The notes under the pieces are model-generated. The model saw nothing but the letters and a program-made list of their open reading frames with translations. It did no database searches and had not been told where the DNA came from. A stretch of 64,000 bases of DNA from Phycisphaerae bacterium (lineage in GTDB: Bacteria; Planctomycetota; Phycisphaerae; UBA1845). The stretch is from NCBI GenBank assembly GCA_029260165.1, contig JAJDDT010000013.1:18954-82953 (forward strand). Direction: 5' to 3'. Made by a program: the position numbers and the translations under genes. Below are positions 750-49,117 of this stretch, one piece after another. The first letter of the stretch is position 1, and every line of letters begins with the position of its first letter.

Positions 750-1655
750 TCACCGCTTAATTATCTGCACGCGATTATTCTGAGAGTCCAGAGCGTATAC
801 CACGTCACCTGAACCATACGCTGCTCCCCAGGGCGAGTAAAGTTCACCAACGCTACGCCCCGGTCCGCCCCACACCCCCAACGACTTTCCAGCCTTGTCA
901 AACCACTGAAGCCGACTGTTGCCATACTCACAAATGAGAAGAATTCCGTCTTTCATGTCCAGATCGTACGGATACCGGAGCTGCCCAGGCTCGGTTCCCA
1001 TCTTCCCGAATTGCGTCAGAAGCTGCCCATCAAGATTGAACCGAAGAACACGGTGATTGCAGGCGTCTGCTACCCACAGCGTCTGTTCATCGTCCACCAG
1101 AATCGCCGCAGGCCGCAAGAGCGGCATGCCCGCGATCTCGCCCGAAACGATTGTCGAGTCAAACGTGTAGTCCGCCTTCCATTTGGTGACCCGATCGTTG
1201 CCGCTGTACTCAGCCACATAAATGAACCCGTTGTTGTCGTAGGCGATGTCGGTGGGCAGGCGAAACTGACCATCCCCGTCACCTTCCTCACCAAACCGGG
1301 CGAGTTCGACACCATCGCGATCGTAAACCAGAACGCGATGATAATGCGTGTCTGCCACAAACAACCGCCCGTCCGAATGAACCGTCAACCCGACGGGTTT
1401 CCCAGCCTGCCTGGCGGGCATGGGCCATTGCCTCTCGAATTCACCCTCCGGGCTGAATCGCTGCACCCGAGCGGTCTTGTCGACGATGAACAATCGACCG
1501 TCCGCAGCGCGGGCGATTCCCCGGGGATAGCTGAACGCACCAGGCCCCATTCCGACCGATCCGAACACCCTGGCCACACCGTTTTCGGTCAGCGGCGGCG
1601 GTTCGCACCCGACCATGAATGCCACCAACGAAATGACAACAACCAATCTAAACAT
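750..1655 (-). CDS. NHL-repeat beta-propeller lipoprotein
   Basis: Repeated GxGxGQFxxPxxIA/VADxxNHRV units; lipobox FMVGC. Confidence 0.9.
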   Translation of the reverse strand: MFRLVVVISLVAFMVGCEPPPLTENGVARVFGSVGMGPGAFSYPRGIARAADGRLFIVDKTARVQRFSPEGEFERQWPMPARQAGKPVGLTVHSDGRLFVADTHYHRVLVYDRDGVELARFGEEGDGDGQFRLPTDIAYDNNGFIYVAEYSGNDRVTKWKADYTFDSTIVSGEIAGMPLLRPAAILVDDEQTLWVADACNHRVLRFNLDGQLLTQFGKMGTEPGQLRYPYDLDMKDGILLICEYGNSRLQWFDKAGKSLGVWGGPGRSVGELYSPWGAAYGSGDVVYALDSQNNRVQIIKR

Positions 1656-3144
1656 CGAGTTCCCTGCGACGAAGAGCGATCGTTGCCAAAACGATGGCCG
1701 GCACGACCGCCAGCGTCATCACCAGTCCGATCGACAGCAACATGCCCGTTTCAAACCGATGAAACTTCTCGACAAGGATTGTAGCCATCATTCGCGGCGA
1801 TGGCACTGCCACGATCGAAACAACATCCACGTCTGCCAACGCAAACGCACCGGTCAGAAACATCCCGCCCGCAAGCGTAGGCCAATGGTGCCCGAGCATC
1901 GCTCCATATACCTCCGACCGTGACCCCGCACCCTCGACCCGCAACGATTCCATCTGATCCCGTGCAGTCGCCCGTGTCGCAACCCAACACGCCAAACACC
2001 CGACCCACGCATATCGACCCGTCAACGCCAACACCAGGATAGGCCAATGGTTGTAAACCGCGTCAACCCGCTGATAAGCAGCCAGCATCGATTCCCCAAT
2101 CAACGCGCCCGGCAAAACCCCCGCCGCCATCGCAATCAGCGTCATGACAGCCACCAGACGGCTGCTCGCTGCAAACACCCCGATACAAACAGCGACCACC
2201 CCGACCGCAGCACAAACCGCAAACGTACCGCCCAACTCCCCACCATAGGTCACAAACAGCTCGCACAGCGGCCCGATCACCTCTCGCCCCGAAAACAACA
2301 TCCGCATCGGAACCCCGACGGTTAAGACGACGATGGCCACGACAACCACAGCGCTGCCCGTTTTCGATCCAACCTGCCGCCCGTCCCCACGCGATGGTCG
2401 GCGACCCCACATGGTTTTGACAAGAACGATTACCCCAACGAGCACCAGCAATGGCACGACGCACCCAATCGCGATCTTCGCACCAGCCACGTCAAACGCG
2501 TCACCTTCTGCGATCGCGAGCAATTCCGTCGAAAACACGATCACACCATTCGCATGTGGAACCGAGTATTCCCCGATCAACACCGCAAACAGGATCAGCA
2601 TCGAAACAGCCACATGCCGCGTCACGTTCGGCAATCCGACCCGGCGAAACGAATCCCAACCCGACGCGTCCATCAACGCGGATTCGTAACCGGATCGCCC
2701 ACCACGCAACCAACCCGCCCCAATCACCAACGCCGCCACAGGCCAACCCCAACCAGCCCAACACCACATCGTCCGCAACCACGGCGCCCACCCTTCCAAC
2801 CCGGGCGTCACGGAACCCCAATACCGTTGCCAACCGAACACGAGCACCATCGCGGGCAACATCAACGGCAGCGTCACCAGCGAAACCATCCACGACGATC
2901 GACGACCACCGATGACAAACGCAACCGGCAACGCCAACACCGTCGCAACAAGCGTCGCAACAACGGCAAGACCGGCTGTCCTGACAAACAGCAACCAGTA
3001 CCGCTCGTTGAAAACCCCGCCCAACAACGCCGCGTCGCACCGTACGGTACGCAAAACCAGCGCACCCGCTGGTACCACGAGTGTCCCCACAAACGCGACC
3101 AACCCGATCAACCTGACAATTGCAAAGAACCCGTATCGATTCAC
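1648..3144 (-). CDS. ABC transporter permease, Fe3+/thiamine-type (divergent)
   Basis: Many TM helices, two-fold internal repeat, EAA-like YESALMDASG; overlaps the SBP gene. Confidence 0.75.
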   Translation of the reverse strand: MNRYGFFAIVRLIGLVAFVGTLVVPAGALVLRTVRCDAALLGGVFNERYWLLFVRTAGLAVVATLVATVLALPVAFVIGGRRSSWMVSLVTLPLMLPAMVLVFGWQRYWGSVTPGLEGWAPWLRTMWCWAGWGWPVAALVIGAGWLRGGRSGYESALMDASGWDSFRRVGLPNVTRHVAVSMLILFAVLIGEYSVPHANGVIVFSTELLAIAEGDAFDVAGAKIAIGCVVPLLVLVGVIVLVKTMWGRRPSRGDGRQVGSKTGSAVVVVAIVVLTVGVPMRMLFSGREVIGPLCELFVTYGGELGGTFAVCAAVGVVAVCIGVFAASSRLVAVMTLIAMAAGVLPGALIGESMLAAYQRVDAVYNHWPILVLALTGRYAWVGCLACWVATRATARDQMESLRVEGAGSRSEVYGAMLGHHWPTLAGGMFLTGAFALADVDVVSIVAVPSPRMMATILVEKFHRFETGMLLSIGLVMTLAVVPAIVLATIALRRRELDV

Positions 3145-4139
3145 TTCAAAAGGATATGGCGGGCGACCTCGGCGCTCAAATCGAGCTTGCTCGCAATATC
3201 GGTGTAGGAAATGTTCACACGGACATCCGTCCTGATGCCCAGCCGATCACGCAACGACGCCCGCACCGGCACATTCCGCGACGTCGACCTCGCCAGCAAC
3301 TCCTCGACAGCAGCCGACGTCAGAAAATCGACCAGCTTTCGTCCCGCCTCCTCATGTCGACAATGTGCGACAAGGGCCACCGACGACGGAATCCACAGCG
3401 TATCCCCACGTCCCATGTCGAGATACTTCAAATCAAGGTTGGCTCCATCACGCTGCGCAACCCAGACATCATCCGTATCGGTCATGCACAGGTCCGCCCG
3501 CCCATCCATCACCGCTCGCACCGCCGACGAATTACCACCGACAATCTGCACCCCACGTTTTTTCAACGAGGTCAAAAACGACGTCGCCCGATCATCTCCC
3601 CACATCGAAAACATCGCAGCCACATGTCCCCGCGTCGTCCCGAACATCGGGTTCGCCATGACCAGCCGCCTCGCCCACCGCTCCTGCGACAGATCCTCCC
3701 ACTTGTCAGGCAACGCATCACGCTGCACACGAGACGGATCAAACGCAAGCACCCGCCCCCGCAATCCGATGGCGGTCCAACGATGTTGCTTGTCGCGAAA
3801 CGCACCGGGAATGTCCGACGCTGTCGCAGGTTCGTACGACGCGAGAAATCCCTCATCCGCCAGACGCATCGTGCTAAACAGCTCGCTGGAAAACAGAACG
3901 TCCGCGCGAGGTTTGCTGCCCTCCGCCCGAATCCGATTGATCAGACCGGTCGTCTTCCCCGCTTCAGTATCGTAAACCACGCGAGGTTCAATACCCGTCT
4001 GATCGAAAAAGGCAGCCATCACCTGCCGGGCAAACGTTTCATCAACACTGCAATAGACAACCGGGCGGGTGTCATCGTCCGCGCAACCAAACGAAACCAC
4101 GCAGAAAAATCCGCAGCACAGAAAAATGGAATGGTTCAA
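3141..4139 (-). CDS. Extracellular solute-binding lipoprotein (FbpA/AfuA-like)
   Basis: VVYCSVD, DTEAGKTTGL, MANPMFGTT and TDTDD motifs; lipobox SFGC. Confidence 0.88.
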   Translation of the reverse strand: MNHSIFLCCGFFCVVSFGCADDDTRPVVYCSVDETFARQVMAAFFDQTGIEPRVVYDTEAGKTTGLINRIRAEGSKPRADVLFSSELFSTMRLADEGFLASYEPATASDIPGAFRDKQHRWTAIGLRGRVLAFDPSRVQRDALPDKWEDLSQERWARRLVMANPMFGTTRGHVAAMFSMWGDDRATSFLTSLKKRGVQIVGGNSSAVRAVMDGRADLCMTDTDDVWVAQRDGANLDLKYLDMGRGDTLWIPSSVALVAHCRHEEAGRKLVDFLTSAAVEELLARSTSRNVPVRASLRDRLGIRTDVRVNISYTDIASKLDLSAEVARHILLK

Positions 4140-4166
4140 CCACTGACGGAAAATGACCCGGGTATC

Positions 4167-5987
4167 CTATTCGTCGTCGCCATCTGACGCGCTTTCCTTA
4201 CCGCCTTTTTCATTCCCAGCGTCCTTAGCTTCCCCAGCTTCCCCAGCTTCCTGCGGTGTCACCCCGGCGGATTCCTGCATGTCGGTGAAATACCTGCGAA
4301 CGACGTCCTGATAGCGACGCGGGATCCTCTTGCGATTGATCGCGTCAGCCGCATCACGCTCCGCCGAGTTGATCACCTCTTTCGCCGCAGACGAAACGTC
4401 ACCCTTCTCCTGCGGACCGTCCACCAGAAACTGCCCAATGATCGAACCAGCGTGGTTGTTCACCTTCTGCTTGTGTTTCTTGTAATCGTACGCCGTCTGA
4501 CGCTCCGGCGCGATCCCACCGCGACCGTTCTTCATGTTGGGACCCATCCCGCCCTTGCCCCGCCCGTTGCACGCTCCACAAGGCTTGTTCCCCTGTTTCC
4601 CCGAACCGTTGCATTGACCACAGGGCTTGTTGTTTTTCCTGCCACCCTGACTCAATTGGTTCTTGCTCTCCTGAAGCTCGGCGATGCTCGACTCGATATC
4701 GTTCATCTCCTGCTCGAGCTGATCCATCTCAGACAACTGCTGCCCAGCCCCGTTCAGCCCCTTTGACGCCTGACCAGCCTGTCCCGCACCCGCCGCTTTG
4801 GCAGCCTGCTTCAACGCATCGGACAACTGGTTGCCCTTGTTGCACGCGTTGCACTTGGACTTCATCTGTTTCGTGGTCTTCTTAATCTCCTCCTGCGACA
4901 TCCCCTTCTTCTCAAGCTGTTTCTTGAGTTTTTCGATGTCCTCAGGCGTGAGGTTTTTCAGCATCTTCTCGATGTCTTTTTTTGAAATACCCGCCTGTTG
5001 GAGCTTCTGCTTCAACTTCTTGTCATCCGCAAGCTTCGCGATCTTGTCAGCCAGCTTGTTCAACTGATTCTCCAACGCCTTGAGCTTCTGCTCGTCCCCC
5101 TCGCTCTCACGCATTTTCTGCTTCAAGATGTCAAGCTGCTTCATGGCAGCCTTGAAATCACCCTTCGCCAACGATTGCGACAACTTGTTCGTCTCACTGT
5201 CATTGGCATCGTCGGGCTGAAGCGCACGCAGCATCCGCTTGAATTCCTTCGCCTGCTCAAAACGCTCATCGCTCTTCTGCTTCTTGAGCGTGTCCTGAAT
5301 CGAGTCGAGCTTCCGAATCGCGATGCGCCGAAAATCCTTCGGACGTTGGAGCTTCGGTTTCTTCAGATTTCCGGATTCCTCAAGATCGTTCAACTGATCT
5401 TCTAATTCCGGGTTCGTGCGGGCAAGCGATTTTAACTTCTCCGTGTGTTTTTTGATCACCGTCTTCGTGTGCCGGACATTCTCAATCTGTTCCGCATCAC
5501 CGTCATCCGCGCCCACCAGCAATCCCGTCGGCAACAGCAACAGGCCGCAGGCCAAAACCACGCTCACCGCCATCGACGAAAACGCACGCGGAAACGTGTA
5601 CCGAAGATGTTGGCTGACCGTCAGATTACGACTCGTGTTCTCCGCATCCGTTACCACCGCATCCGCAAACGGATCATCTGCATCCTGACAATACAACCCG
5701 CTGCTGATCCGCTCACGAAGACCAGCCGCCTTGTCCAACGCAGCCGCCGCACCGTACGCATCAATCCGATTCACCAACGCCCAAACGACCGACACCAAAA
5801 CAGAGCCCGTCCCCAGACAGACCGCCATCAAACCCAGAGGCCAGTCAAAGGCATACAATCGATCAACGAGCACGACCGCCGCGAAAATCCCCGCGCCCGC
5901 CGTTGTCGTCTTGCAGACAAGATTGAGCCAACGGTCGGTCGTAATCCGACGCCGAGCCTTCTGAACCTGTGTCTCGATGGGTGACAT
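4167..5987 (-). CDS. Membrane-anchored long coiled-coil protein with two CxxCxGxG motifs
   Basis: Three N-terminal TM segments, K/Q/E-rich heptads, PCGQCNGSG and PCGACNGRG, C-terminal IPRRYQDVVRRYF. Confidence 0.8.
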   Translation of the reverse strand: MSPIETQVQKARRRITTDRWLNLVCKTTTAGAGIFAAVVLVDRLYAFDWPLGLMAVCLGTGSVLVSVVWALVNRIDAYGAAAALDKAAGLRERISSGLYCQDADDPFADAVVTDAENTSRNLTVSQHLRYTFPRAFSSMAVSVVLACGLLLLPTGLLVGADDGDAEQIENVRHTKTVIKKHTEKLKSLARTNPELEDQLNDLEESGNLKKPKLQRPKDFRRIAIRKLDSIQDTLKKQKSDERFEQAKEFKRMLRALQPDDANDSETNKLSQSLAKGDFKAAMKQLDILKQKMRESEGDEQKLKALENQLNKLADKIAKLADDKKLKQKLQQAGISKKDIEKMLKNLTPEDIEKLKKQLEKKGMSQEEIKKTTKQMKSKCNACNKGNQLSDALKQAAKAAGAGQAGQASKGLNGAGQQLSEMDQLEQEMNDIESSIAELQESKNQLSQGGRKNNKPCGQCNGSGKQGNKPCGACNGRGKGGMGPNMKNGRGGIAPERQTAYDYKKHKQKVNNHAGSIIGQFLVDGPQEKGDVSSAAKEVINSAERDAADAINRKRIPRRYQDVVRRYFTDMQESAGVTPQEAGEAGEAKDAGNEKGGKESASDGDDE

Positions 5988-6054
5988 GCGCGATCCTCGC
6001 AAAAAAAGTGGCTACGGGTTGCATAACAGTTCCGGCGGGGTGCAACGGACCATT

Positions 6055-6083
6055 GTAGCGTCACCCCTTGTGGGTGACGGGAA
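6055..6083 (+). repeat. REP family 1 (GTAG + 8-bp hairpin), copy 1
   Basis: GTAG-CGTCACCC-CTTGT-GGGTGACG-GGAA, intergenic. Confidence 0.85.
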
Positions 6084-6333
6084 TACAAAACGACGTCCGT
6101 CTGCAATCACGACGTCCACAACGTGCCACGCCGCAGAACAGCCACCACGATCGTACCCGCCGATTTCGTCACGCACCCGGTGGCTGCCGGCACCAAACTT
6201 GCCGGTACCCTTATTATCGTACGCATTGTACCATCTATGAGCAACCAGGTTGGATTTTGTCGGGATTTCAGTGCCAATAAAAGTTTCCGCACGCATGTCG
6301 GCGTCGGAACGCGGGCAAATGGGAGAATGTGCG

Positions 6334-8229
6334 ATGTTGTCGGCCCATCAACCGCCGCCTCAATTGAAAAACTGTTGTCGGATTCTCAGCATTCTTCTCG
6401 CAGCCGTGTTGGCAGGGGGCGTTGTCCACGCACAGGAGAATGAGGCTGAGGACGCGACGCTCGTGGAAGGGCAGGTCTTCGACTACGCGGGAAGTGGTGT
6501 CAAAGCCGTCGTGGTCGATTTGTACAAGTCAGGCGCTGACCTGTCGGGCAAACCCCTCCTGTCCGTTCACACCGAAGGGTTCGGCGACTTCAAATTCCCC
6601 AAAACAGTCAGCCTCACCGGTGACGTAACCGTCGTCTTTACAAAAGAAGGCTACGCCAGGGTCGAACGAACGGTCACCATCGAAGACGGCGGCCTGCCCC
6701 CATTCGTCGATGTACAACTCCCCGGCGCTAACACGTTCAAGGGAATCGTCCGCTCGGAGGAATCCAGGCAACCCATCGCCGACGCCAATGTGCTCGTCAG
6801 CTCCTTCGGAAGGGACTGGCGCGTCAGGACCGACAAGGACGGCCTGTTCACCGTCGAGGGAACCCACAAGCGCAGTGGCCAACTCACCGTCCAGGCCGGC
6901 GGGTTCGGAAAACTGATCATGAACGTCCCGTCCCTCGCCGCGGACGAACCCATCGAAATCGAGCTGCAATCCGAACGCATCATTCGCATCGTTGTCGTCG
7001 ATTGGCGGAGCAACCCGATTCCCGACGTGGATGTCGAACTCCAGGGAACCGAGCGGAGCGATTATTGGTACGGCATCACCGACAAGGACGGACAAATAGT
7101 CTTCACCGGTGCATCGCGCGACATGACGACCATTCGCGCCAGGCTCGACCACAAGGGATTTGTCTCAGACGTGACCTACACCCGCGAGATCGAGTTTCCC
7201 GACGATAAATTTGACACCGAATACCGCCTGACCATGGTATCCGCCGGCACCATCAAGGGAGAGGTCACCGACGCAAAGACGGGCAGAACGTTGCAGGGAA
7301 CGCGGATCACACTGGGCGCAACCAGCGATCCGAATCAGCCAACAGAGTGGACCGATCTAGCCGGATCGTACGAACTGACCGGCGTGTCTCCGGGCAAGGA
7401 CGTCGTCACCGTTTACCTGTCGGGGTACGCCCCACAACTGCACGAAATCCGCATCCACGCCAACCAGACAACAGAGGTCGATTTCGCGCTCAAAGAGTCC
7501 AAAATCGCCAAAGGCGTCGTGCTCGATTCCAAAGAGAAACCCATCGAAGGCGCGTTCATCGTCGCCACCGAATGGGCTGGAGGATCGACCCTCGGTGCAC
7601 AGGCGCTGACTGACGAAAACGGGGTCTTCGAATTGACCAACATCCCGGACGAGGAATTTGAAGTGGCTGTTCAGGCCTTCAAGCACCAACCGCTCCTCGA
7701 ACAAACAATCAAACCGGGAAAACTCGACCACCGTTTCAAACTAAAACGCGCAGAGAAATCATCAGGAGCTCTCGGATCGGCAAAACGCCTCAAAATCGGC
7801 GATTCGCTCCCGGATTTGGATTTCACAACGCTGGAGGGGAAAAAAATCAAGACCGCGGATTTGCGCGGCAAAGTGATACTGTTGGATTTCTGGGCGACAT
7901 GGTGTGGCCCATGCATCGCGGAGATTCCCAATCTCGTCGAAATGTACGACGAATTGGCGGCGGACCCGAATTTCGTTTTTGTGGGCATTAGTCTGGATGG
8001 AAACGGAATGGAGAAGACCGTCAGGAAATTCGTCAGGAAAAACAAGATGAAATGGTTGCAGGTGGTGGGTGACAAAAACGGCGTGGACGTGGCCTCGAAA
8101 AAATGCGGCGTCACTTTCATTCCGCGGACGATTCTTATCGGACCGACTGGAAGAATTCACGCGATGGACCTTCTCGGCGACGCTTTGAAAAAAGAAGTGA
8201 CATCGCTCGTCGAGAAACTCAAAAAATAG
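6334..8229 (+). CDS. Carboxypeptidase-regulatory-like repeat protein fused to a C-terminal TlpA thioredoxin
   Basis: Signal peptide; repeated GxVxD..G.PI.GA / TDxDGxF units; LLDFWATWCGPC. Start is uncertain (6319 or 6334). Confidence 0.88.
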   Translation: MLSAHQPPPQLKNCCRILSILLAAVLAGGVVHAQENEAEDATLVEGQVFDYAGSGVKAVVVDLYKSGADLSGKPLLSVHTEGFGDFKFPKTVSLTGDVTVVFTKEGYARVERTVTIEDGGLPPFVDVQLPGANTFKGIVRSEESRQPIADANVLVSSFGRDWRVRTDKDGLFTVEGTHKRSGQLTVQAGGFGKLIMNVPSLAADEPIEIELQSERIIRIVVVDWRSNPIPDVDVELQGTERSDYWYGITDKDGQIVFTGASRDMTTIRARLDHKGFVSDVTYTREIEFPDDKFDTEYRLTMVSAGTIKGEVTDAKTGRTLQGTRITLGATSDPNQPTEWTDLAGSYELTGVSPGKDVVTVYLSGYAPQLHEIRIHANQTTEVDFALKESKIAKGVVLDSKEKPIEGAFIVATEWAGGSTLGAQALTDENGVFELTNIPDEEFEVAVQAFKHQPLLEQTIKPGKLDHRFKLKRAEKSSGALGSAKRLKIGDSLPDLDFTTLEGKKIKTADLRGKVILLDFWATWCGPCIAEIPNLVEMYDELAADPNFVFVGISLDGNGMEKTVRKFVRKNKMKWLQVVGDKNGVDVASKKCGVTFIPRTILIGPTGRIHAMDLLGDALKKEVTSLVEKLKK

Positions 8230-8250
8230 CGTTTTTTCGAAGCAGCCTGG

Positions 8251-41357: not shown

Positions 41358-41387
41358 TTGACACAAGAGTGTGGGTTTTGGTACCTT
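41358..41387 (+). promoter_or_regulatory. Sigma70-type promoter of the PEP-CTERM gene
   Basis: TTGACA-18 nt-TACCTT with TG extension. Confidence 0.55.
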
Positions 41388-41612
41388 GGGGGCAGTTGGG
41401 AACCTCTCCAGGGTCGAATTGAGACCTCAATTCCGGGGAGGGTTTATTGAGAGAGAGCGCTGGAGGTACGCGGATGAGGGTGTGTCCTTCGTTTGTGTGC
41501 CGCGGTGGCTGTTGAACAGTCGTCGTTGTATGGGAAGAACAGCCGGTCCGAACTGGTTGGGTGCTTGTGAACCACTCAGCCCTCGATGGATCGGTTTGGA
41601 GGAGAATGTAAG

Positions 41613-42299
41613 ATGAATCGCTCTTTCTCGTTGAACGTCTGCGGTTTCGCCGCGGTGATGGTCGGATGTCTGGGTGCGTTTGCACCGGCGGCCACGATTC
41701 AGTTGGTCGATCCTGTGACGGGTGCGGATTCCGGTTGGCAGGCATCGTTCGCTGATGGCGATATGGTGACGCTGGTCGTGGATGCGGTGACGGATGGGGC
41801 GGTCTTTATTGAGAAGTTTGTGGACTTTCAAGGTCCTATTGGTCCCGGTGGTCTGTTGCCGTCGGTGAACATCGATTTTGTTCAGACCGGATCGGATGCG
41901 AATACGGTTTCGACGATCGTGATCGTTGACGAGGTTCTGACGAATCTTCAGGGCGCGGACTGGGGTGGATTCCTGTGGACGATTCCTGACAAGGGTGAAG
42001 CATTTTTCAACGTTTCGGATTCGTCTGGTTTTTCGACCAGCCCGTTTGGTAACGCGACGTTTAGTGCGTTTTCCAGTAATGATGGGAATCTGGCTTCGAC
42101 GTTGATCGCGACAGGCGGGACGGTTGCCAACGGTGAGACGTATTTCCCTGGTGCCGGCGCGGGTGAGTTGTACATCAACGTTGATCTGGGTCAGGCGGAC
42201 GTGACGTCGTTTGTTTTGAAGGAGCGACCCGTTCCCGAGCCTGCCTGTCTGGTGCTGTTGGCGATTGGTGGCCTGGCTGTCGTTCGTCGGCGTCGGTAG
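41613..42299 (+). CDS. PEP-CTERM sorting domain protein
   Basis: Signal peptide; C-terminal VPEPACLVLLAIGGLAVVRRRR; GGAGGA RBS. Confidence 0.93.
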   Translation: MNRSFSLNVCGFAAVMVGCLGAFAPAATIQLVDPVTGADSGWQASFADGDMVTLVVDAVTDGAVFIEKFVDFQGPIGPGGLLPSVNIDFVQTGSDANTVSTIVIVDEVLTNLQGADWGGFLWTIPDKGEAFFNVSDSSGFSTSPFGNATFSAFSSNDGNLASTLIATGGTVANGETYFPGAGAGELYINVDLGQADVTSFVLKERPVPEPACLVLLAIGGLAVVRRRR

Positions 42300-42345
42300 G
42301 GCCTTTTGAAACGCAGCGTGTATGGGCTGCTGACACCTTCTGATT

Positions 42346-42407
42346 TTCCCGTCACCCGCAAGGGGTGACGCTACATTGTTGGCCTCGCCTGTTGGGGGTG
42401 ACGCTGC
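42346..42407 (-). repeat. REP family 1, copy 5 plus degenerate copy 6 (reverse orientation)
   Basis: Minus strand reads GTAGCGTCACCCCTTGCGGGTGACGGGAA (42374-42346) and GCAGCGTCACCCCCAACAGGCGAGG. Confidence 0.85.
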
Positions 42408-42428
42408 GACGGATATTTTGAGCGGATG

Positions 42429-42455
42429 GGGCGTTCCGATGCGGACGCCCTTTTT
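42429..42455 (+). terminator. Intrinsic terminator
   Basis: GGGCGTTC...GGACGCCC followed by TTTTT. Confidence 0.65.
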
Positions 42456-42502
42456 GTTTGCGCATCGGTTGTCGCGTGGATTGTATCTGAAAGGGAGAAC
42501 GA

Positions 42503-42907
42503 CTATCCGGGGATGGGTGTTTCGGCTTGCGAGGCGACGATGATGACGCCGATGAGGATCATGGCGACGCCGACGCCCTGGATCAGGTTGAGGCGTTCGT
42601 TGAGGACGAGGTAGCCTACGGTTGCGATGATGGCGTATCCACCGCCGACCATGATGGGGTAGGCGATGCTGATCCTGAGCGTTTTGCTTTGCAGGGCGTA
42701 CATGTAGAAGGCGGCGTTGAGTCCGAAGCAGGTGAGGCCTATCAGCAGGGCGGGGGAGGTGAGAACGGTCTTGATGGCGCCGAGGGGGCCGTTTGCGAGC
42801 AGGCCACCGGCTTGTTCAGCCTTTGACGATCCGACTTTGATGAGGATGTTTGCGACGGCGTTGAGGACGAGGGCGGTGAGCAGGGCGACTCCGTGGATCG
42901 AGAACAT
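42503..42907 (-). CDS. SMR/EamA-like small membrane transporter
   Basis: Four TM helices; ANILIK, ISIAYP, LNERL. Confidence 0.85.
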   Translation of the reverse strand: MFSIHGVALLTALVLNAVANILIKVGSSKAEQAGGLLANGPLGAIKTVLTSPALLIGLTCFGLNAAFYMYALQSKTLRISIAYPIMVGGGYAIIATVGYLVLNERLNLIQGVGVAMILIGVIIVASQAETPIPG

Positions 42908-42981
42908 GGTGTTGGCCTTTCGTTGATGGGCGTTGGTGTTGGACGGGGAGATTGTAGCGTGGGTCGGGCGGAGTGGGGAAG

Positions 42982-43386
42982 TCAGTTGTCCGAGAGGGTG
43001 GACTGTTCGGATGGTGAGAGGAGTTGTCCGTAGACGTCGCCGAGTTCGCGGAGGCAGAATTTGTTTGCGACGAAATAGTATCGGAAGGGGTTGTTGAAGT
43101 AGGAGGACATGGCACCGGTGATGCAGAAGACGAAATGGACGGTGAAGATGACGATGGCTGGGGCGGTGACGCCGAAGAAATAGAAGAGGACCGAGCAGAC
43201 GACAAGTGCGATTGCGATGATGGCGGACCAGCAGAGGCAGGTTTTTGTCCAGTAGCGGACGTAGGGTGAGGATTGGTAGTCGTTGGATCGGGAGGCGATG
43301 AGCGGTGCGAGGATGAGGGTGACGGCTGCGAGGGCCTGGATGGCGGCGGTGGTTTGTTTTTCGGATTCGGAGGGTGTGTAGGTCAT
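42982..43386 (-). CDS. DUF4870-like membrane protein
   Basis: Three TM helices; SPYVRYW and PFRY motifs. Confidence 0.65.
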   Translation of the reverse strand: MTYTPSESEKQTTAAIQALAAVTLILAPLIASRSNDYQSSPYVRYWTKTCLCWSAIIAIALVVCSVLFYFFGVTAPAIVIFTVHFVFCITGAMSSYFNNPFRYYFVANKFCLRELGDVYGQLLSPSEQSTLSDN

Positions 43387-43585
43387 GGCGTCAGCCCGGT
43401 CGTGTTTGAACGTGCGTTTCGTCCCGGCGGGCGATGACGAAGAATTGCGAACTTGCCCGCCTCTGCGTTCATGCTAACCGATGGTGGGGGGTTGTGACAG
43501 ATATTTCGCGTTGATGTTTGTGCGACGCGGCGAGGGGATCCGCATGTCGCGTTTGGCGGGGCGCGTTGGTTTTTGAATCGAAAAC

Positions 43586-43618
43586 CGACTCCCCCACCAC
43601 TAAAGTGGTGGGCCACCC
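43586..43618 (-). repeat. REP family 2, solo arm
   Basis: Minus strand reads GGGTGGCCCACCACTTTAGTGGTGGGGGAGTCG. Confidence 0.85.
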
Positions 43619-43624
43619 GGCTTG

Positions 43625-43897
43625 TTACATTTCGTGCAATTTGGTTCCGCATTCGGGGCAGATGCCGGTTGTGTTGCCGGTGAGGTTGTAGCCGCAGTTT
43701 TGACATCGAGGTGGTGATTTACAGTTGGGGCAAATCGTTTGGGATTGGCCGTGGAGTTTTTGGCCACAGAATTTGCACGATCCGGAAGGGAACGGGCGGT
43801 TGCGATGTTGGGTGAGGATGGCCAACAGCAGAAGAATCGCGGGAAGACAGAGGAAGATGACGAAAGCGTATCCGATAATGTCGTAGAGCGAGAGCAT
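43625..43897 (-). CDS. Small TM protein with double zinc ribbon
   Basis: TM helix then CKFCG...CPNC...CQNCGYNLTGNTTGICPECG. Confidence 0.75.
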   Translation of the reverse strand: MLSLYDIIGYAFVIFLCLPAILLLLAILTQHRNRPFPSGSCKFCGQKLHGQSQTICPNCKSPPRCQNCGYNLTGNTTGICPECGTKLHEM

Positions 43898-43933
43898 GTT
43901 GATTTGGTTTCGACGCGGAATCGGTCAATCGCG

Positions 43934-46900
43934 TCACCGCACGTTGAAGTATTTTGCTTCGGGGTGGTGGGTGATGAGGGCGGTGGTGGATTGTTCGGGG
44001 TCGAGTTGGAATTCCTCGCTGAGTTTGATGCCGATGGTTTCGGGGTCGAGAAGGGGCCAGATGCGGACCTGGTCTTCGAGTCTGGGACAAGCCGGATATC
44101 CGAAACTGTAGCGTGATCCTCTATATTTTTGTTGGAAGATGAGTCGTCTTTCGCGCGCATCCTGCTCGGCGATGTTCCATTCGACGCGGATCTGTTTGTG
44201 CAGATACTCAGCCAATGCTTCGGCGGTTTCGACGCCCAGGCCGTGGAGGTGGAGGTAGTCGACGTATTTGTCCTGGGCGAACCATTCGCGTTCGATTTGG
44301 GAAACGGTCGGTCCGACGGTGACGATCATCATGGCGACGACGTCCTTTTCATCGCTGGTGACGGGTCGGAAGAAATCGGAGAGGCACCAGTAGGGCGGTT
44401 TTCCCTGTCGCGGGAATTCAAATCGGGCGATTTCGCGGGAATGATTTTCGGGGTCGAAGATGATCAGTTCATCGCCGTCGGATTGTGCGGGCCAATACCC
44501 GTAGATGGCCTGGGGGTGCAGAATGTCTTCGTTGAGACATTTTTCGACGAGTTGTCGGAAGATGGGACGGACGTCGTTGTCGATGTAGCGGTTGTATTCG
44601 TCTTTGGTTTTTCCGGCGCGGCGGTATTGCCACTGAACGTTGAAGAGCATGGATTCGTTGAGGTAGGCGAGGGTGGCGCGGAGGTCGATTTTTTCGACGA
44701 CGCGTCTGCCCCAGAAGGGCGGCGTGGGGATGGGGACGTCCTGGGCGATGTTGGAATGTCCTGCGCGTGGGGCGACGTCGGTGGCGCGTCGTTTGGGAGT
44801 GGCGGCGATTTTCCTGCTGACAGGTTCGGGGACGGAAAGGTCGCCGGCTGCGATTTTGTTCATGACCGCGAGACCCTCGAAGGCGTCTTTGGCGAAATAG
44901 AGCGGGCCTTCGTATTCGCGTCTCAGGTCGTCCTCGACGTATTTTCGGGTGAGGGCAGCGCCTCCGAGAATGACGGGAACGTTGATGCCGCGTTCGTTCA
45001 GGACGGGGAGATTTTCGCGCATGATGACGGTGGACTTGACGAGCAGTCCGGACAATCCGATGGCGGCGGCTTTGTGCTCCTGCCATGCGTCGATGATGGC
45101 GTTGATGGGTTGTTTGATGCCGAGGTTGTGGACCTTGTAGCCATTGTTGGTGAGGATGATATCGACGAGGTTTTTTCCGATGTCGTGGACGTCGCCGCGG
45201 ACGGTCGCGAGGATGATGGAGCTTTTTTCATCGCTGTCGGTGCGTTCCATGTAGGGTTCGAGAAACGCGACAGCGGCTTTCATGGTTTCGGCGGACTGGA
45301 GGACGAAGGGGAGTTGCATCTGTCCCGCACCGAAAAGATCGCCGACGGTTTTCATGCCGTCAAGGAGCAGTTCGTTGACGATGTCGAGGGGTTTGTAGGT
45401 GGATAGTGCCTGGGTGAGATCGCCTTCGAGTCCGTTGCGGTCGCCGTTGATGATGCGTTGTTTGAGGCGGTCTTCGATGGGCAGTTTCGACAGGTCTTTT
45501 TTGGTCGAGCCTATCTCCTCGCCTTCTGAAAAGAGGGAGATGTAGTGCGTGAGGGGGTCAAAGTTGTCGCGTCGGCGGTCGTAGACGAGGTCCAGTGCGG
45601 CGTTCCAGCGTTCGTCGCTGATTTTGTTTCGCGGGAGGATCTTGCTGGCGTGGACGATGGCTGCGGTGAGTCCGCGACGGGTGGCTTCGTGGAGGAAGAC
45701 GGAATTCAGGACGGCGCGAGCGGCTGGTGCGAGACCGAAGCTGACGTTGGAGACGCCGAGGATTGCGTTGCAATCGGGCATGTCGTTCATGATGGCTTCG
45801 ATACCGTCGAGGGTTTCAAGTGCGAGTCTGCGATCCGCGGGGGTGCCGGTGGTGATGGGAAAGGTGAGACAGTCGAAGAAAATGTCCTTCGGTTTGAGGC
45901 TGTGTTTGTTAACGCAGAGGTCGAAGATGCGTTTGGCGATTTCGAGTTTTCGGTCGGCGGTCTTGGCCATCGCCTCTTCGGGGTGTTCGTCGATGGTGAG
46001 CGCGACGACGGCGGCTCCGTAGCGTTTGAGCATGGGGCAGAAGCGATTGATCTTGTCTTCGCCGTCTTCGAGGTTGATGGAATTGACGATTGATTTTCCG
46101 CCGGCGAGTTTCAGACCTGCTTCGATGACGTTGATTTCGGTGCTGTCGAGCATGAGGGGGACGGTGACATCCTGGGCGTATCGGGAGATGACGCGTTCCA
46201 TGTCGGGGACGCCGTCGCGACCGACGTAATCGACGCAGACATCGAGAACGTGGGCACCTTCTGCGACCTGATCTCGTCCGACCTTGACGACGCCGTCGAT
46301 GTCGTCTTCGAGGAGGAGACGTTTGAACATGCGCGAGCCGTTGGTGTTGCTGCGTTCGCCGACGATGAGGAACGAGTTGTCCTGGCGCATGGCGACGGCC
46401 TGGTAGATGCTGCTGATGGAGGGTTCGCGTTTGGGCTCGCGTGGTTTCGGAGCGCGATGGCCTAGCGATTCGCAGAGCATTTTGAGATGTTCGGGGGTGG
46501 TGCCGCAGCAGCCACCGACGGCGTTGACACCGTCTTTTTCGACGAACTCGATCAGCCAGCGGGTGAATTCCTCGGGGGTGAGTGTGTATTGGGGTTGGCC
46601 GTCGACGAGCAGGGGGAGTCCCGCGTTGGGTTGAATGATGATGGGGCGGTCGGAAAGTCGGCTGAGGAGGCGGATGTGCTCGCTCATTTCCTGCGGACCG
46701 GTGGCGCAGTTGAGTCCGATGGCGCTGACCTCGTCGTATTGCGAAAGGGCGACGATGGCGGCGGAGGTTTCGGTTCCGACGAGCATGGTGCCGGTGGTTT
46801 CGACGGTGAAGGAGCAGAGGATGGGGAGCTGGACGCCGAGGTCGTTCATGGCGTCGATGCAGGCGACGACGGCGGACTTGGCCTGGAGAATGTCCTGGCA

Positions 46901-47377
46901 GGTTTCGACGAGCAGGGCGTCTACCCTGCCGTCGATGAGTCCGCGAGCTTGTTCGGCGTAGCTGTCGACGAGGGTGTCCCAATCGGTTTGGCGGAGGGAC
47001 GGGAGTTTGGTGCCCGGTCCCATGGAGCCTATGGCGAATCGTGGTTTGTCGGGGGTGGAGAGTTTGTCGCACTCGGCGCGTGCGATGTCGCCGGCCATCC
47101 TGTTGAGCATGCGGGTTTGGTCCGCAATGCCGAATTCGCTGAGGACGATTTTGTTGGAGCCGAAGGTATCGGTGAGGACGGCGTCGGAGCCGACCTCGAG
47201 GAAGGAGCGGTGGATTTCGGCGATGACGTCGGGTCGTGTTCGGACGAGGACGTCGGTGCAGTTTTCGTGTCCGTCGTAATCGGCGAGCGGGAGGTCGTAT
47301 TTGTAGATGGAGGTGCCCATGGCGCCGTCAAAGACGAGTACACGCTCGCGAAGTGTGTCGAGAAATCTGGAGTTCAT
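43934..47377 (-). CDS. metH: Cobalamin-dependent methionine synthase
   Basis: DGAMGT, GLNC, GGCCGT, VGERSN, GDVHDIGKN, RYSFGYPACP. Confidence 0.98.
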   Translation of the reverse strand: MNSRFLDTLRERVLVFDGAMGTSIYKYDLPLADYDGHENCTDVLVRTRPDVIAEIHRSFLEVGSDAVLTDTFGSNKIVLSEFGIADQTRMLNRMAGDIARAECDKLSTPDKPRFAIGSMGPGTKLPSLRQTDWDTLVDSYAEQARGLIDGRVDALLVETCQDILQAKSAVVACIDAMNDLGVQLPILCSFTVETTGTMLVGTETSAAIVALSQYDEVSAIGLNCATGPQEMSEHIRLLSRLSDRPIIIQPNAGLPLLVDGQPQYTLTPEEFTRWLIEFVEKDGVNAVGGCCGTTPEHLKMLCESLGHRAPKPREPKREPSISSIYQAVAMRQDNSFLIVGERSNTNGSRMFKRLLLEDDIDGVVKVGRDQVAEGAHVLDVCVDYVGRDGVPDMERVISRYAQDVTVPLMLDSTEINVIEAGLKLAGGKSIVNSINLEDGEDKINRFCPMLKRYGAAVVALTIDEHPEEAMAKTADRKLEIAKRIFDLCVNKHSLKPKDIFFDCLTFPITTGTPADRRLALETLDGIEAIMNDMPDCNAILGVSNVSFGLAPAARAVLNSVFLHEATRRGLTAAIVHASKILPRNKISDERWNAALDLVYDRRRDNFDPLTHYISLFSEGEEIGSTKKDLSKLPIEDRLKQRIINGDRNGLEGDLTQALSTYKPLDIVNELLLDGMKTVGDLFGAGQMQLPFVLQSAETMKAAVAFLEPYMERTDSDEKSSIILATVRGDVHDIGKNLVDIILTNNGYKVHNLGIKQPINAIIDAWQEHKAAAIGLSGLLVKSTVIMRENLPVLNERGINVPVILGGAALTRKYVEDDLRREYEGPLYFAKDAFEGLAVMNKIAAGDLSVPEPVSRKIAATPKRRATDVAPRAGHSNIAQDVPIPTPPFWGRRVVEKIDLRATLAYLNESMLFNVQWQYRRAGKTKDEYNRYIDNDVRPIFRQLVEKCLNEDILHPQAIYGYWPAQSDGDELIIFDPENHSREIARFEFPRQGKPPYWCLSDFFRPVTSDEKDVVAMMIVTVGPTVSQIEREWFAQDKYVDYLHLHGLGVETAEALAEYLHKQIRVEWNIAEQDARERRLIFQQKYRGSRYSFGYPACPRLEDQVRIWPLLDPETIGIKLSEEFQLDPEQSTTALITHHPEAKYFNVR

Positions 47378-47450
47378 GATTGTTTATCTATCGGATCAAA
47401 GTGTCACGCATCTTGGCGTCAGGTTGGGATTGAATGTATAGTTCGCGATC

Positions 47451-47978
47451 ATGGGCGTGTCAAGGACGGATATAGCGGACGTTGGTGTTGATCGGCGAAA
47501 CGGGTGGCAGCGGGCGTTGCTGCTGGTCGGGTCGATTGGACCGCTGGGACATATGCCTGCGTCGGGGACCGTGGCCGTTGCGGTGGCTGGGGTTCCGTTG
47601 GCGTGGTTGATGCGGACGACGTTGCCGCCGTGGGCGTATTGGGTCGTGACGGTGGTTTTTGCGGGCGTGTCGATCTGGCTGCATGAGAATGGCGATCGGT
47701 TGCTGGGCGAGAAGGACAGCCGCAAGCTGGTTTGGGATGAGTTGGCGGGGTTTTTCGTGGCGACCGGGGTGATGCCGCTGACCTGGCCTATGTTTGTGAT
47801 GTGTTTCTTTCTGGAACGGATTATCGACATCGTGAAAGTGCCCCCGGCCAATTGGATCGAGGACAAATGGCTTGGGGGATGGGGCGTGGTTGGCGATGAT
47901 CTGATGGCGGGGGGGTATACGCTGTTGATTCTGCTGTGTGTGGAGTGGTGGGTGCCGATGTCGGTGTGGGGTGGATGA
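47451..47978 (+). CDS. pgpA: Phosphatidylglycerophosphatase A
   Basis: PASGT, D...VWDE..G, RIIDIVK, GGWGVVGDDLMAG. Confidence 0.9.
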   Translation: MGVSRTDIADVGVDRRNGWQRALLLVGSIGPLGHMPASGTVAVAVAGVPLAWLMRTTLPPWAYWVVTVVFAGVSIWLHENGDRLLGEKDSRKLVWDELAGFFVATGVMPLTWPMFVMCFFLERIIDIVKVPPANWIEDKWLGGWGVVGDDLMAGGYTLLILLCVEWWVPMSVWGG

Positions 47979-49117
47979 TGGCCGCAGGACGTGACGGGAT
48001 TGTGCGCGTTTGTTTTGTGTTCGGGACAAGGCCTGAGGTGATCAAGTGTGCGCCGGTGATACGGTGCTTGTCGCAGCGCGAGGGGTTCGAAGTTCAGACG
48101 GTGTTGACCGCGCAGCATCGGGAGATGTCGGACCAGGTGATCGAGGTTTTCGGTGTGCCGGTGACGGTGGATCTGGATTTGATGCGGGCAGGGCAGACGT
48201 TGCCGTCGCTGACGGCGCGTTTGTGTGAAGGGGTGTCGGGGGCGATTCAGCAGTTGAAACCGGATTGCGTGATGGTGCAGGGTGATACGACGAGTTGTTT
48301 TGTCGGGGCGCTTGCGGGGTTTTATGCGGGGATCGCGGTGGGGCATCTGGAGGCGGGTTTGCGGACGAGTGATGTGCGTCAGCCGTTTCCCGAGGAGATG
48401 AATCGTCGATTGGTCGGGTCGTTGGCGAGTTTTCATTTCGCGCCGACGGAAGGTGCCAGGACGAATCTGTTGAAGGAAAATGTACCTGCGGATCGGATTT
48501 GGGTAACGGGGAATTCGGGGATTGACGCGCTGCGGATCGTGAGTGAGACCGCCATAGTTGCCGCGGGGACCGCGTTGGCGGATGTGTTGGCGGGGTGTGA
48601 CGGTTTGGTGATGACGGTGACGTCGCATCGGCGGGAAAATCAGCCTTTCATGGCAGGGATTGCGTCTGCGATTTACGAATTGATCGAGGCCGTGCCGAAT
48701 TTGCACGTCGTGTTTCCGGTGCACCTGAGTCCGGCTGTGCGCAAGGCGGTGATGCCGATTCTAAGCGGTGTGGACCGGTGTCATTTACTGGAACCGCTGG
48801 CGTATGATCAGTTCGTGGCGTTGATGAAACGGAGCGATGTGATTCTGACGGATTCGGGCGGGATTCAGGAGGAAGCACCGTATCTTGGCAAACCGGTGTT
48901 GGTCATGCGGCGGAAGACGGAGCGCCCCGAGGCGGTCGAGGCGGGGACGACGATTCTGGTCGGGGATGATCAGGCGACGATTTTCGATCGTACGTTGGGA
49001 CTGTTGAATGATGCCGAAGAGCGGGTGCGGATGGCAAAAGCCGCGAATCCGTACGGTGACGGTTACGCCTCCGAACGCGTGGCGGATGTGTTGGCGGGGG
49101 CGTTCGGGGGCAGATAG
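47975..49117 (+). CDS. wecB: UDP-GlcNAc 2-epimerase (non-hydrolysing)
   Basis: FGTRPEVIK, QGDTTS, HLEAGLR, PFPEE, TDSGGIQEE, NPYGDG. Confidence 0.96.
   Translation: MMAAGRDGIVRVCFVFGTRPEVIKCAPVIRCLSQREGFEVQTVLTAQHREMSDQVIEVFGVPVTVDLDLMRAGQTLPSLTARLCEGVSGAIQQLKPDCVMVQGDTTSCFVGALAGFYAGIAVGHLEAGLRTSDVRQPFPEEMNRRLVGSLASFHFAPTEGARTNLLKENVPADRIWVTGNSGIDALRIVSETAIVAAGTALADVLAGCDGLVMTVTSHRRENQPFMAGIASAIYELIEAVPNLHVVFPVHLSPAVRKAVMPILSGVDRCHLLEPLAYDQFVALMKRSDVILTDSGGIQEEAPYLGKPVLVMRRKTERPEAVEAGTTILVGDDQATIFDRTLGLLNDAEERVRMAKAANPYGDGYASERVADVLAGAFGGR

Follow-up and report, generated by a model that had tools for sequence, protein, structure and literature searches.

Strand-skew domains of 10-30 kb and polarity-dependent loss of REP arms in a Phycisphaerae genome

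Introduction

Bacterial strand skew is assumed to switch twice per chromosome and is used as such for origin finding and assembly checks. As outlined in PMC7111523, the skew of single-origin replichores is an excess of G over C with T over A on one strand, which peaks at silent sites, does not depend on gene direction and switches sharply. The Phycisphaerae genome analysed here shares these properties, but with about a hundred switches, gradual declines and no contig-scale offset; the pattern of a single origin, i.e. two switches per chromosome, a switch beside dnaA and a constant sign over hundreds of kb, was not found. Sharp rises, slow declines and declines within long transcription units are known from the N-shaped skew domains and fork-polarity gradients of mammals (PMC4729899 and PMC3320577 in part, otherwise general background). 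Here, sharp rises and gradual declines occurred irrespective of gene strand, yet in a bacterium, over tens of kb instead of megabases and several times stronger, with a putative fork direction. Cyanobacteria with DnaA-independent replication likewise lack a V-shaped skew, and several starts copy their chromosome; according to the portion of PMC7198777 used here their profile is irregular and replication asynchronous, whereas our genome has very strong local skew with switch points fixed across species.

GRINS, as characterized in the sections of PMC8256042 used here, carry GC and TA skews that are intense and correlated, occur in both signs on one strand, peak at third positions and have an unknown mechanism. 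Skews of this intensity were present in the three window blocks described below (0.21-0.29 and 0.18-0.26). GRINS, however, consist of duplicated stretches and change within 1 kb, while here smooth 10-30 kb domains of single-copy genes span the whole genome. Because GRINS require duplication of >500 bp at >80% identity, they were rejected: none of 606 strongly skewed genes and 0 bases of the window blocks were duplicated, although contig breaks may hide repeats.

REP/REPIN elements with their RAYT (TnpA-REP) proteins are the closest relatives of the repeats reported here. As far as PMC3116915, PMC8266576, PMC6006769 and PMC3733652 cover them, both systems have a GTAG foot with a hairpin, many extragenic copies, strand-specific recognition, an inverted doublet as the basic unit, of which singlets are remnants, and a Y1 HUH gene with the repeat on both sides. 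RAYT binding needs the GTAG and the GTAG strand alone is processed, according to the part of PMC8266576 used. Our genome differs in that solos prevail, the surviving arm follows the local skew and damage is located at the GTAG foot, a rule not given in those portions of the REP/REPIN literature. For IS200/IS605 elements, orientation bias at the lagging-strand template similarly reads out the single-stranded strand (PMC3971601, PMC6006769, in part). There the bias is set at insertion and concerns whole replichores, whereas here insertion is unbiased and the exposed arm is lost within local domains. Strand-skew domains of this kind combined with REP-arm sorting were not found in the literature searched.

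Results

Skew blocks of the window

The window is the whole stretch of 64,000 nt under analysis; keto skew was calculated as (G+T-A-C)/n. A first-pass annotation of this DNA had described two C/A-rich blocks and one G/T-rich block. All three were present with skews of -0.166 at 1650-7800 (z -13.0), -0.171 at 29000-38400 (z -16.6) and +0.258 at 38500-49100 (z +26.6), whereas the DNA between these blocks and that following them had just +0.028 and +0.048, respectively. Their extent had to be corrected, as the strongest part of the first block was 1650-6100 and the tail of the G/T-rich block reached about 54 kb rather than 49 kb. Hand counts of 26 C and 5 G at 30841-30900 and of 9 C and 28 G at 46621-46680 were exact, and priA, queG, cls, metH and wecB scored above the NCBIfam cut-offs. 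In these five genes four-fold sites followed the block and not the coding strand, in agreement with the bias having been described as independent of gene direction.

The REPs annotated at 6055, 33030, 42374, 42407 and 43618 were found in the orientation given; the one at 35239 turned out to be a headless, bulged remnant. The copy at 17876 had been taken for an imperfect one with a weaker C bias. Its GTAG is intact, the variant is common and the local skew is just -0.05. Because skew is near zero there in the sister species as well, this copy is an exception to the proposed halo around REPs, not a weak copy. Centring on REPs applied to some domains, not to every one.

Table 1. Skew domains, genes and REP elements of the window
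Feature	Position	Strand	Remarks
C/A-rich domain on + strand, strongest 1650-6100, ends in rise near 8.0-8.3 kb	750..8229		same sign in sister-species orthologs
Family-1 GTAG REP, intact arm A of doublet, GTAG on C/A-rich strand	6055..6079	+	
Spacer plus decayed inverted partner (arm B) of the 6055 doublet, with GTAG expected on G/T-rich strand	6080..6134	+	
Family-2 GTGG REP inverted doublet, two intact arms, local skew +0.02	14321..14402		
Family-1 REP, GTAG intact, common to sister species, no skew around the copy in either genome	17876..17900	+	
Family-2 REP doublet, local skew -0.11	28131..28285		
C/A-rich domain with priA (-), queG (+), murJ (-)	29000..38400		sister species equally strong
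priA	29093..31381	-	four-fold sites, coding strand: 254 G, 70 C
queG	32021..32977	+	four-fold sites, coding strand: 29 G, 95 C
Solo family-1 REP, local skew -0.45, points towards switch	33030..33054	+	no family-1 REP found at corresponding sister-species site
Family-1 remnant without GTAG foot, bulged loop	35239..35262	+	
Sharp C/A-to-G/T switch, divergent intergenic region	38200..38600		collinear and kept in sister species; single independent unitig across
G/T-rich domain, highest at 42.5-47 kb (about +0.8 to +0.97), then slow fall to zero	38500..53700		
cls	38525..40021	+	four-fold sites, coding strand: 156 G, 48 C
Solo family-1 REP, GTAG on C/A-rich (minus) strand, common to sister species	42350..42374	-	
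Degenerate second family-1 copy, orientation as neighbour at 42350..42374	42383..42407	-	
Solo family-2 GTGG arm on C/A-rich (minus) strand	43586..43618	-	
metH	43934..47377	-	four-fold sites, coding strand: 50 G, 436 C
wecB	47936..49117	+	four-fold sites, coding strand: 150 G, 30 C

Domains throughout the genome and in the sister species

The genome was a mosaic of 10-30 kb strand-skew domains with silent-site keto skews up to about ±0.9. Per-gene four-fold keto skew had an SD of 0.36 compared to 0.084 expected from sampling (3202 genes). GC and AT skew were correlated with an r of -0.80 genome-wide, and skew autocorrelation fell to zero at about 10 kb. The domains ignored gene direction, in that lone opposite-strand genes tracked their flanks (r 0.59, n = 302; r 0.72, n = 154). 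Their shape was a sawtooth with 86 sharp rises versus 37 falls in 3.5 Mb scanned, a median distance between rises of 26 kb and gradual declines. Steps >0.6 over 4 kb went up 111 times and down 23 times among 2813, in the sister species 16 times and never among 1375. Skew oscillated in both contigs carrying the two dnaA genes of this genome.

Silent sites are near saturation between the two species with just 0.10-0.15 of identity left. For 102 orthologs that, in either species, have no catalogued REP and no contig end within 8 kb, skew was correlated with an r of 0.68 (rms 0.3). All 19 rises collinear with the sister species kept their sign, and eight of them have no REP within 9 kb there. Domains and switch points were thus kept where REPs are absent, which spoke against REPs as the main source. 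Faster divergence between the two genomes was seen neither near REPs nor in strong domains; proteins of the latter even diverged slightly less (identity 0.776 vs 0.739). Together with a steady silent-site GC of 0.70-0.76 this is expected if one uniform process merely changes direction.

Among 41 relatives a proxy of third-position A/C runs gave 1744 per Mb for this genome, 948 for relative G034, 858 for the sister species and about 25-230 for the other 38. Across 251 genomes of the phylum the proxy was swamped by low-complexity proteins, and four sampled top scorers had no domains.

The REP family and its orientation

Family-1 REPs carry GTAG immediately 5' of a hairpin with an 8-bp stem (-7 to -10 kcal/mol, z about -3 to -4). 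The genome has 159-165 copies, extragenic in the five contigs checked. Each REP represents one arm of an inverted doublet; 22 partner arms were intact and 11 decayed, and 66 elements were aligned. The suggested search for a RAYT/HUH gene was successful: a RAYT-type gene above the PF01797 cut-off is flanked by inverted family-1 copies. It has an in-frame TAG, and the truncated part matches NF047646 below cut-off. The sister species has an uninterrupted match between family-1 copies.

The orientation-dependent skew postulated from the window held genome-wide, as 127 of 135 solo REPs were on the C/A-rich strand (52 contigs; contig-level sign-flip p ≤ 5e-5). In the sister genome orientation matched skew for 26 of 29 REPs. 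The signed, decaying profile was also borne out with a skew of -0.16 within 1 kb and negative values at 139 of 159 copies, for genes on both strands. It was asymmetric: skew returned to zero by about 10-12 kb 5' of the REP, and by 7-8 kb 3' of it. Where two solos lay within 10 kb, they had the same orientation in 35 cases, were facing in 8 and back-to-back in 1. REP age, judged by mismatch count, showed no trend. Generic GTAG/GTGG hairpins outside the REP families, IS-like ends, tRNAs and DnaA boxes had no link to polarity.

In other organisms 7 of 16 solos of the same REP were negative (mean -0.01), and of the 54 loci scored 38 were doublets. Among 42 one-strand REP clusters of E. coli, counted regardless of partner arm and gene direction, 34 had the GTAG on the leading, G-rich strand, i.e. 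the opposite polarity.

Loss of the arm on the G/T-rich strand

Sorting was assayed with 40 doublets in which both arms are recognisable. Young doublets were placed without orientation bias (21 of 40 negative; skew rms 0.29 vs background 0.30). The damaged arm was the one with GTAG on the G/T-rich strand in 24 cases versus 8, and in 18 versus 2 where |skew| exceeded 0.15. Changes per site amounted to 0.095 in this exposed arm, 0.028 in the other arm and 0.050 in the spacer. In 31 elements T and A of the GTAG were changed 11 and 8 times in the exposed arm versus 2 and 0 times. Thus one arm is lost at its GTAG foot in a polarity-dependent manner. Because young doublets are unbiased in DNA that is skewed, and the G/T-strand arm is destroyed only subsequently, REPs report a pre-existing polarity. 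In the alignment many of the GTAG changes are GTAG to GCAG, which opposes the local bias. Spacer divergence climbed weakly with |skew| (rho 0.25). Family-2 doublets showed the same sorting weakly in a crude test (22 vs 13, p 0.26).

Screens for a source of the polarity

Screens with k-mers and gapped motifs yielded none that marks switches in both species. Loss of a replication or repair gene was dismissed: dnaA, mutS, mutL, RNase HI, AddAB-type nucleases, UDG, ruvA, dnaE and recG were found here, in the sister species and in weakly skewed relatives. As a putative source of the polarity, the best fit is a large number of fixed sites at which replication or gap synthesis would begin.

Discussion

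We favor the view, at a probability of roughly one half, that REP doublets in 10-30 kb domains of opposite strand composition lose the arm on the G/T-rich strand, likely since this strand is left single-stranded by synthesis from about a hundred predicted fixed sites. DNA synthesis would start there and run outwards, with the G/T-rich strand as the exposed, lagging-template-like one. A RAYT nuclease would cut GTAG-REPs on that strand, and therefore mutants without GTAG would be favoured. Strand-specific cleavage of single-stranded REP is a prediction of which the damage pattern at the GTAG is an indirect sign. Arms on the other strand would survive, best beside sharp switches where polarity is most complete, and this would produce the peaked, asymmetric skew profile of REPs. 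Strand-specific single-stranded exposure as the link between REPs and skew, a suggestion of the first-pass annotation, is retained as likely.

The least certain step is the origin of the polarity in replication forks, or restarts, that set out from the sharp C/A-to-G/T switches. The rises may be replication initiation sites. Extended to the whole chromosome, this means that the lineage copies its DNA eukaryote-style from about a hundred fixed starts 20-40 kb apart, with miniature N-shaped domains, and that doublets record fork direction by losing the lagging-template arm; we regard this as possible yet doubtful. To produce jumps of about 0.8, most sites would have to be used in most cycles, with about a hundred active simultaneously. 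To our knowledge this is far more replisomes than known bacteria use. The favored explanation is also opposed by the lack of a switch motif common to both species, the presence of two dnaA genes and ordinary repair genes, the opposite polarity in E. coli, the weak sorting of family-2 doublets and the weak increase of spacer divergence with |skew|; moreover, no more than 56-58% of the coding DNA is directed away from rises.

The replisome problem is sidestepped if bulk replication proceeds from one origin, while extended tracts of repair or recombination, such as gap filling, resection or strand-biased gene conversion, begin at fixed fragile sites and cause the same exposure that sorts REPs. 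AddAB, RuvA, RecG and PriA are present, GRINS link intense correlated skews to gene conversion (PMC8256042, in part), and biased conversion would give the lower divergence of strong domains. Yet one origin should leave a contig-scale offset, while the means of the 20 largest contigs all lie between -0.22 and +0.11. The lack of a site motif and of strongly skewed genes in duplicated DNA also disagrees, and we consider such tracts an unlikely source. In a further scheme, to which we give only slightly more credit, background polarity picks the surviving arm and the solo REP then adds a halo through recurrent nicks followed by resection 5' of the element, where the longer flank of the profile would suit a free 3'-OH from HUH cleavage. 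Old solo REPs indeed exceed the background (-0.41 vs rms 0.30) and their centre is more negative by 0.28 than the flanks predict, but survival bias in the sorting explanation predicts an equal excess. REP-linked skew is partly missing in the sister species: its skew is +0.04 versus +0.21 where a REP field here has no counterpart within 8 kb there (104 clustered genes), and -0.05 (se 0.06) at REP sites lacking a sister copy, where regression would lead one to expect -0.13. Rises that have a pointing REP in the sister species keep about 0.85 of the jump seen here, those without any REP there about 0.55. On the other hand, sites with a REP only in the sister species are equally skewed here (-0.27, n = 12; expectation -0.15) in a rerun with a wider, noisier catalogue, the first one having lacked families specific to that species. 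The absence of faster divergence near REPs and of a mismatch-count trend, and the in-frame stop of the cognate RAYT gene, argue against the scheme as well. The data leave room for a smaller added effect of REPs on skew.

That net RNA-polymerase flux, with read-through and antisense transcription over 5-10 kb, sets polarity by exposing the non-template strand is improbable. Coding-strand skew does drop along long co-directional runs (0.27 to -0.03 here, 0.10 to -0.13 in the sister species), its mean keto value is about +0.10 and the window switch coincides with a divergent promoter region. But ribosomal, ATP synthase and chaperonin genes reach just -0.3 to +0.6, the coding strand is C/A-rich in 28 of 92 long runs and strikingly so in metH, and 57 of 86 refined rises lie inside genes. 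Even less probable is the full claim of the first-pass annotation, namely that oriented REPs alone make the domains by repeated strand-specific nicking. The signed profile peaks at the REP, solo orientation agrees, family-2 doublets lie in weak skew (rms 0.19) and RAYT-type genes are flanked by REPs. However, a REP kernel explains about 14% of skew variance (cross-validated R2 0.14), REP-free domains persist in two species past near-saturation, and intact symmetric doublets exist at skews as high as +0.55 and -0.49. Young doublets are unbiased in DNA already skewed, and already sorted; neither other organisms nor the 17876 copy show a halo, and divergence is not faster near REPs. A role of REPs as the main cause of the halo is thus not supported. 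It is hardly credible that the domains are left over from many inversions of an ordinary replichore skew, or that they are an assembly artefact. Many rearrangements separate the species and some orthologs flipped sign, but rises are collinear as often as the background (19 of 25; 236 of 299) and conserved past near-saturation, declines are gradual, the sister genome has the same blocks and one independent unitig, probably from the same sample, covers 29000-43993 without a difference. Inversions, chimerism and a single oriC, which the first-pass annotation had named as possible reasons for the block edges, therefore all fail.

About a hundred conserved switches with near-maximal skew imply a strand-asymmetric process that begins anew every few tens of kb. 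The arm-sorting rule offers an answer to how REP singlets originate from doublets and would provide a sequence-only readout, applicable to other genomes, of the strand that is single-stranded in vivo, which arm loss here likely marks as the G/T-rich one. The sequence already supplies a map of candidate sites. If the process is replication, its programme is not described for bacteria and belongs to a phylum with little-studied chromosome biology; arm loss may then indicate that DNA synthesis has about a hundred fixed starts instead of one.

Skew domains in the genome and among relatives

The window is C24:18954-82953 of the source genome (G000; 4.43 Mb, 119 contigs, 57% GC), whose genes were called with a custom dipeptide model, which yielded 3689 genes and 87% coding DNA. 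Unless stated otherwise, skew denotes (G+T-A-C)/n, the keto skew, computed at four-fold sites with a correction for the coding-strand mean (about 0.09-0.10). Figures for the sister species (G001) rest on 1.66 Mb of about 5.0 Mb. Relatives of the window's MetH at 75-89% identity were labelled as Phycisphaerae or Planctomycetota MAGs, and one as Acidobacteriota.

On recount the three skew blocks of the first-pass annotation, its two hand counts, five gene names and REP positions were all correct. The copy at 17876, described as imperfect with a weaker C bias, shows no imperfection and lacks a halo, and the REP at 35239 is without the GTAG foot. The pattern is genome-wide. In 2-kb windows the keto skew had an SD of 0.15, and the correlation between GC skew and AT skew was -0.80. 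Per gene the SD of the four-fold skew was 0.36 as compared to 0.084 from sampling, with a range of about ±0.9. The most extreme C/A strand consisted of C 0.68, A 0.2, G 0.08 and T 0.05, with GC content almost constant. The switches from C/A-rich to G/T-rich DNA (rises) are sharp and the falls slow: there were 81 rises versus 26 falls in one count and 86 versus 37 among sign-changing steps. Successive rises were separated by a median of 26 kb (n=41), and the autocorrelation of skew reached zero at about 10 kb. The means of the 20 largest contigs showed no clear replichore offset. An IS-like element (at least 31 copies) and a 23-repeat CRISPR-like array were located mostly at the ends of contigs; neither was linked to polarity.

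Skew of 790 orthologs correlated at 0.62 with G001, while silent sites kept only 0.10-0.15 of identity beyond chance. The domains are real, strong and conserved. Among 41 relatives the trait index was extreme in both genomes and in G034, which belongs to another family; in the 169 kb of it that were examined, domains were of moderate strength and a clear GTAG family was missing. Strong local skew was also present in sampled stretches of G005, G009 and G017 and at loci L028-L030, L033, L034 and L045; most other Phycisphaerae loci sampled had none, some despite GTAG hairpins. In G174, a complete 5.42 Mb planctomycete chromosome, a C/A-rich stretch begins after the dnaA-like first gene, and this organism is a candidate for experiments.

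The domains are apparently new to the literature. Full-text searches of mainly open-access literature, including papers on skew, replication and orientation (PMC7198777, PMC7111523, PMC3971601), yielded no account of skew domains on the kilobase scale in a bacterium. The closest phenotype is that of GRINS, duplicated stretches with intense correlated skews (PMC8256042). Identity with GRINS was rejected because none of 606 strongly skewed genes lay in duplicated DNA.

Locations of the features discussed
Feature	Location	Observation
Skew block	window 1650-7800	C/A-rich
Skew block	window 29000-38400	C/A-rich
Rise	window 38200..38600
Skew block	window 38500-49100	G/T-rich
Public-run unitig	window 29000-43993	zero differences; possibly from the source sample itself
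Exosortase-like gene	window 40094-40696	adjoins cls; best match XrtH, under cut-off
Y1 transposase	L001:1351-1910 (source genome, C98)	one in-frame TAG
Its counterpart	G001 C85	match without stop
Orthologs of opposite skew	G001 C74:33000-44000; source genome C41 and C20	+0.4 to +0.7 in G001, -0.1 to -0.6 in source genome
First 60 kb of G174	C1:1-60000 (L215-L217)	about 50 kb of C/A-rich DNA (-0.3 to -0.6), then switch
Palindrome copies	G001, among others C6:85713 and C72:60912 (L159/L187 region)

REPs and the skew around them

The signed peak around oriented REPs, decaying with distance, that the first-pass annotation had proposed to look for was found genome-wide. Aligned on the GTAG strand, family 1 (GTAG REPs, 159-165 copies) showed a skew of -0.16 (all positions) right beside the REP, which weakened with distance and was gone by about 10-12 kb in the 5' and 7-8 kb in the 3' direction. 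Skew was negative around 139 of 159 copies, for genes of either strand, and around 127 of 135 solo copies, whose partner arm is gone (52 contigs, sign-flip p<=5e-5, all four gene contexts). Solo copies of family 2 (GTGG REPs; 20/26) and family 3 (22/30) leaned the same way; those of family 4 (9/17) showed no lean in this direction. In G001 26 of 29 REPs followed the rule, as did 6 of 6 copies of an extra GTAG family. A solo REP pointed at 44 of 86 rises from within 6 kb versus 23% at random, and solo pairs at most 10 kb apart had the same orientation in 35 cases, faced each other in 8 and stood back-to-back in 1. Compared with matched controls the skew differed solely on the 3' side. The suggested search for a RAYT/HUH gene returned five Y1 transposase matches, one between inverted family-1 copies. 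In G001 the loops of several different REP families, as well as those of tandem arrays of heptamers, contain a perfect palindrome of 14 bases whose core is GGCGCGCC. It occurs 23 times in the 1.66 Mb and is almost missing in the source genome.

The proposal that REPs cause the skew as a halo did not hold for the main effect. A family-1 kernel explained skew with a cross-validated R2 of 0.14, and the rms skew was still 0.32 in genes with no catalogued REP within 12 kb (n=329). Orthologs that in both genomes had neither a REP nor a contig end within 8 kb correlated at 0.68 (n=102); if this were a relic, the ancestral rms would have to have been close to 0.7. Orthologs flanked 25 rises on either side, and 19 of these rises were collinear (background 236/299); all 19 had the same sign in G001, 8 of them with no REP within 9 kb there. 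Where this REP occurs in other organisms, on metagenome contigs, no halo surrounded it (77 loci, 54 scorable, 38 doublets; 7/16 solos negative, rms 0.12). Faster silent or protein divergence was not found near REPs or in strong domains, although near-saturation blunts the silent test. Lineage-specific sites gave mixed results, so that REPs may add an increment: at sites with a REP in the source genome only, skew was -0.35 there and -0.11 in G001 (expected -0.20, n=19); with the wider catalogue such sites had -0.05 in G001 (expected -0.13, n=38), and the opposite class had -0.27 in the source genome (expected -0.15, n=12). The 104 genes under the REP field of the source genome had a skew of +0.04 in G001. 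Orthologs of one G001 region had opposite skews (see table), which indicates that a rearranged region takes on the polarity of its new context.

Source of the polarity

Lone opposite-strand genes tracked the flanking skew (slopes 0.72 and 0.84), 28 of 92 long co-directional runs had a C/A-rich coding strand, and ribosomal, ATP synthase and chaperonin genes were only moderately skewed. Therefore a gene's own transcription does not fit well as the source. Along co-directional runs over 8 kb, coding-strand skew dropped steadily from 0.27 to -0.03 in 5' to 3' direction, so the rises lie mostly outside long operons; 56-58% of coding DNA is directed away from them. The domain shape, the strand taken to be exposed and the unchanged rate are compatible with DNA synthesis that would start at the rises and proceed outwards, as in mammalian N-domains. 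We consider it doubtful that polarity strictly reflects fork direction from many fixed starts; with restarts included, the chances are about even. The implied number of replisomes, the two dnaA genes, the full repair set and the failure to find a sequence motif at the switches count against many starts, and the foremost alternative source would be long tracts of repair or conversion. A single dnaE match was seen in each of the whole genomes of the source organism and G001; G015 and G021 carry a second full-length one.

Loss of doublet arms

The family-1 REP represents arm A of a doublet whose two arms are inverted and separated by a spacer of 30 bases. Doublets that are intact showed no skew bias (9/22 negative), whereas those with a decayed partner were negative in 11 of 11 cases and solos in the same comparison in 122 of 130. 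Of the 66 elements that were aligned, 58 had arms of unequal damage, and in 46 of these the worse-hit arm was the one with its GTAG on the G/T-rich strand (odds ratio 19, p 7e-6). The rule was weak and not significant for family-2 doublets (22 versus 13, off-register rows kept in). Type A predominates among the solo arms (about 130 versus 14-17 of type B), though doublets lose either arm.

Doublets were counted as young if both arms could still be recognised and the spacer had no more than three changes (40 of 282 profile hits). Skew was negative around 21 of them (rms 0.29), and the damaged arm was as predicted in 24 versus 8 cases, in 18 versus 6 with at most one spacer change, and in 13 versus 3 with at most three changes in spacer and tail. 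Unless selection or conversion preserves spacer and tail, these doublets arose too recently to account for a rewriting of silent sites over 5 kb. In 31 exposed arms there were 11 hits to the T of GTAG, 8 to the A and 11 to the stem base next to the loop; the numbers for the other arm were 2, 0 and 1. The change of GTAG to GCAG on the G/T-rich strand opposes the local mutational bias, which on the C/A strand of the same elements was 0.093 for G>A versus 0.056 for C>T.

In E. coli (NC_000913.3, 0-3.08 Mb) 34 of 42 one-strand REP clusters had GTAG on the leading strand (p 7e-5), a bias opposite in composition to ours, which, like the weak family-2 result, speaks against the sorting of arms by polarity. 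The count covers 87 forward and 100 reverse matches, the first ones of 326, irrespective of partners and gene direction, and strands were assigned from the commonly given REP pattern and positions of origin and terminus. Full-text searches of mainly open-access literature, including PMC6006769, PMC3733652, PMC3116915 and PMC8266576, yielded no account of arm loss by strand polarity.

RAYTs need GTAG, and processing is limited to the GTAG strand when single-stranded (PMC8266576). The simplest reading of the arm loss is selection against a cleavable REP on the often single-stranded strand: an exposed GTAG arm on the G/T-rich strand would be cut by RAYT, and mutants losing GTAG would be favoured. 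We favor the view, with a probability of about 0.8, that the REPs are sorted by a pre-existing strand polarity, where surviving arms would accumulate adjoining the rises, at which polarity is most complete.
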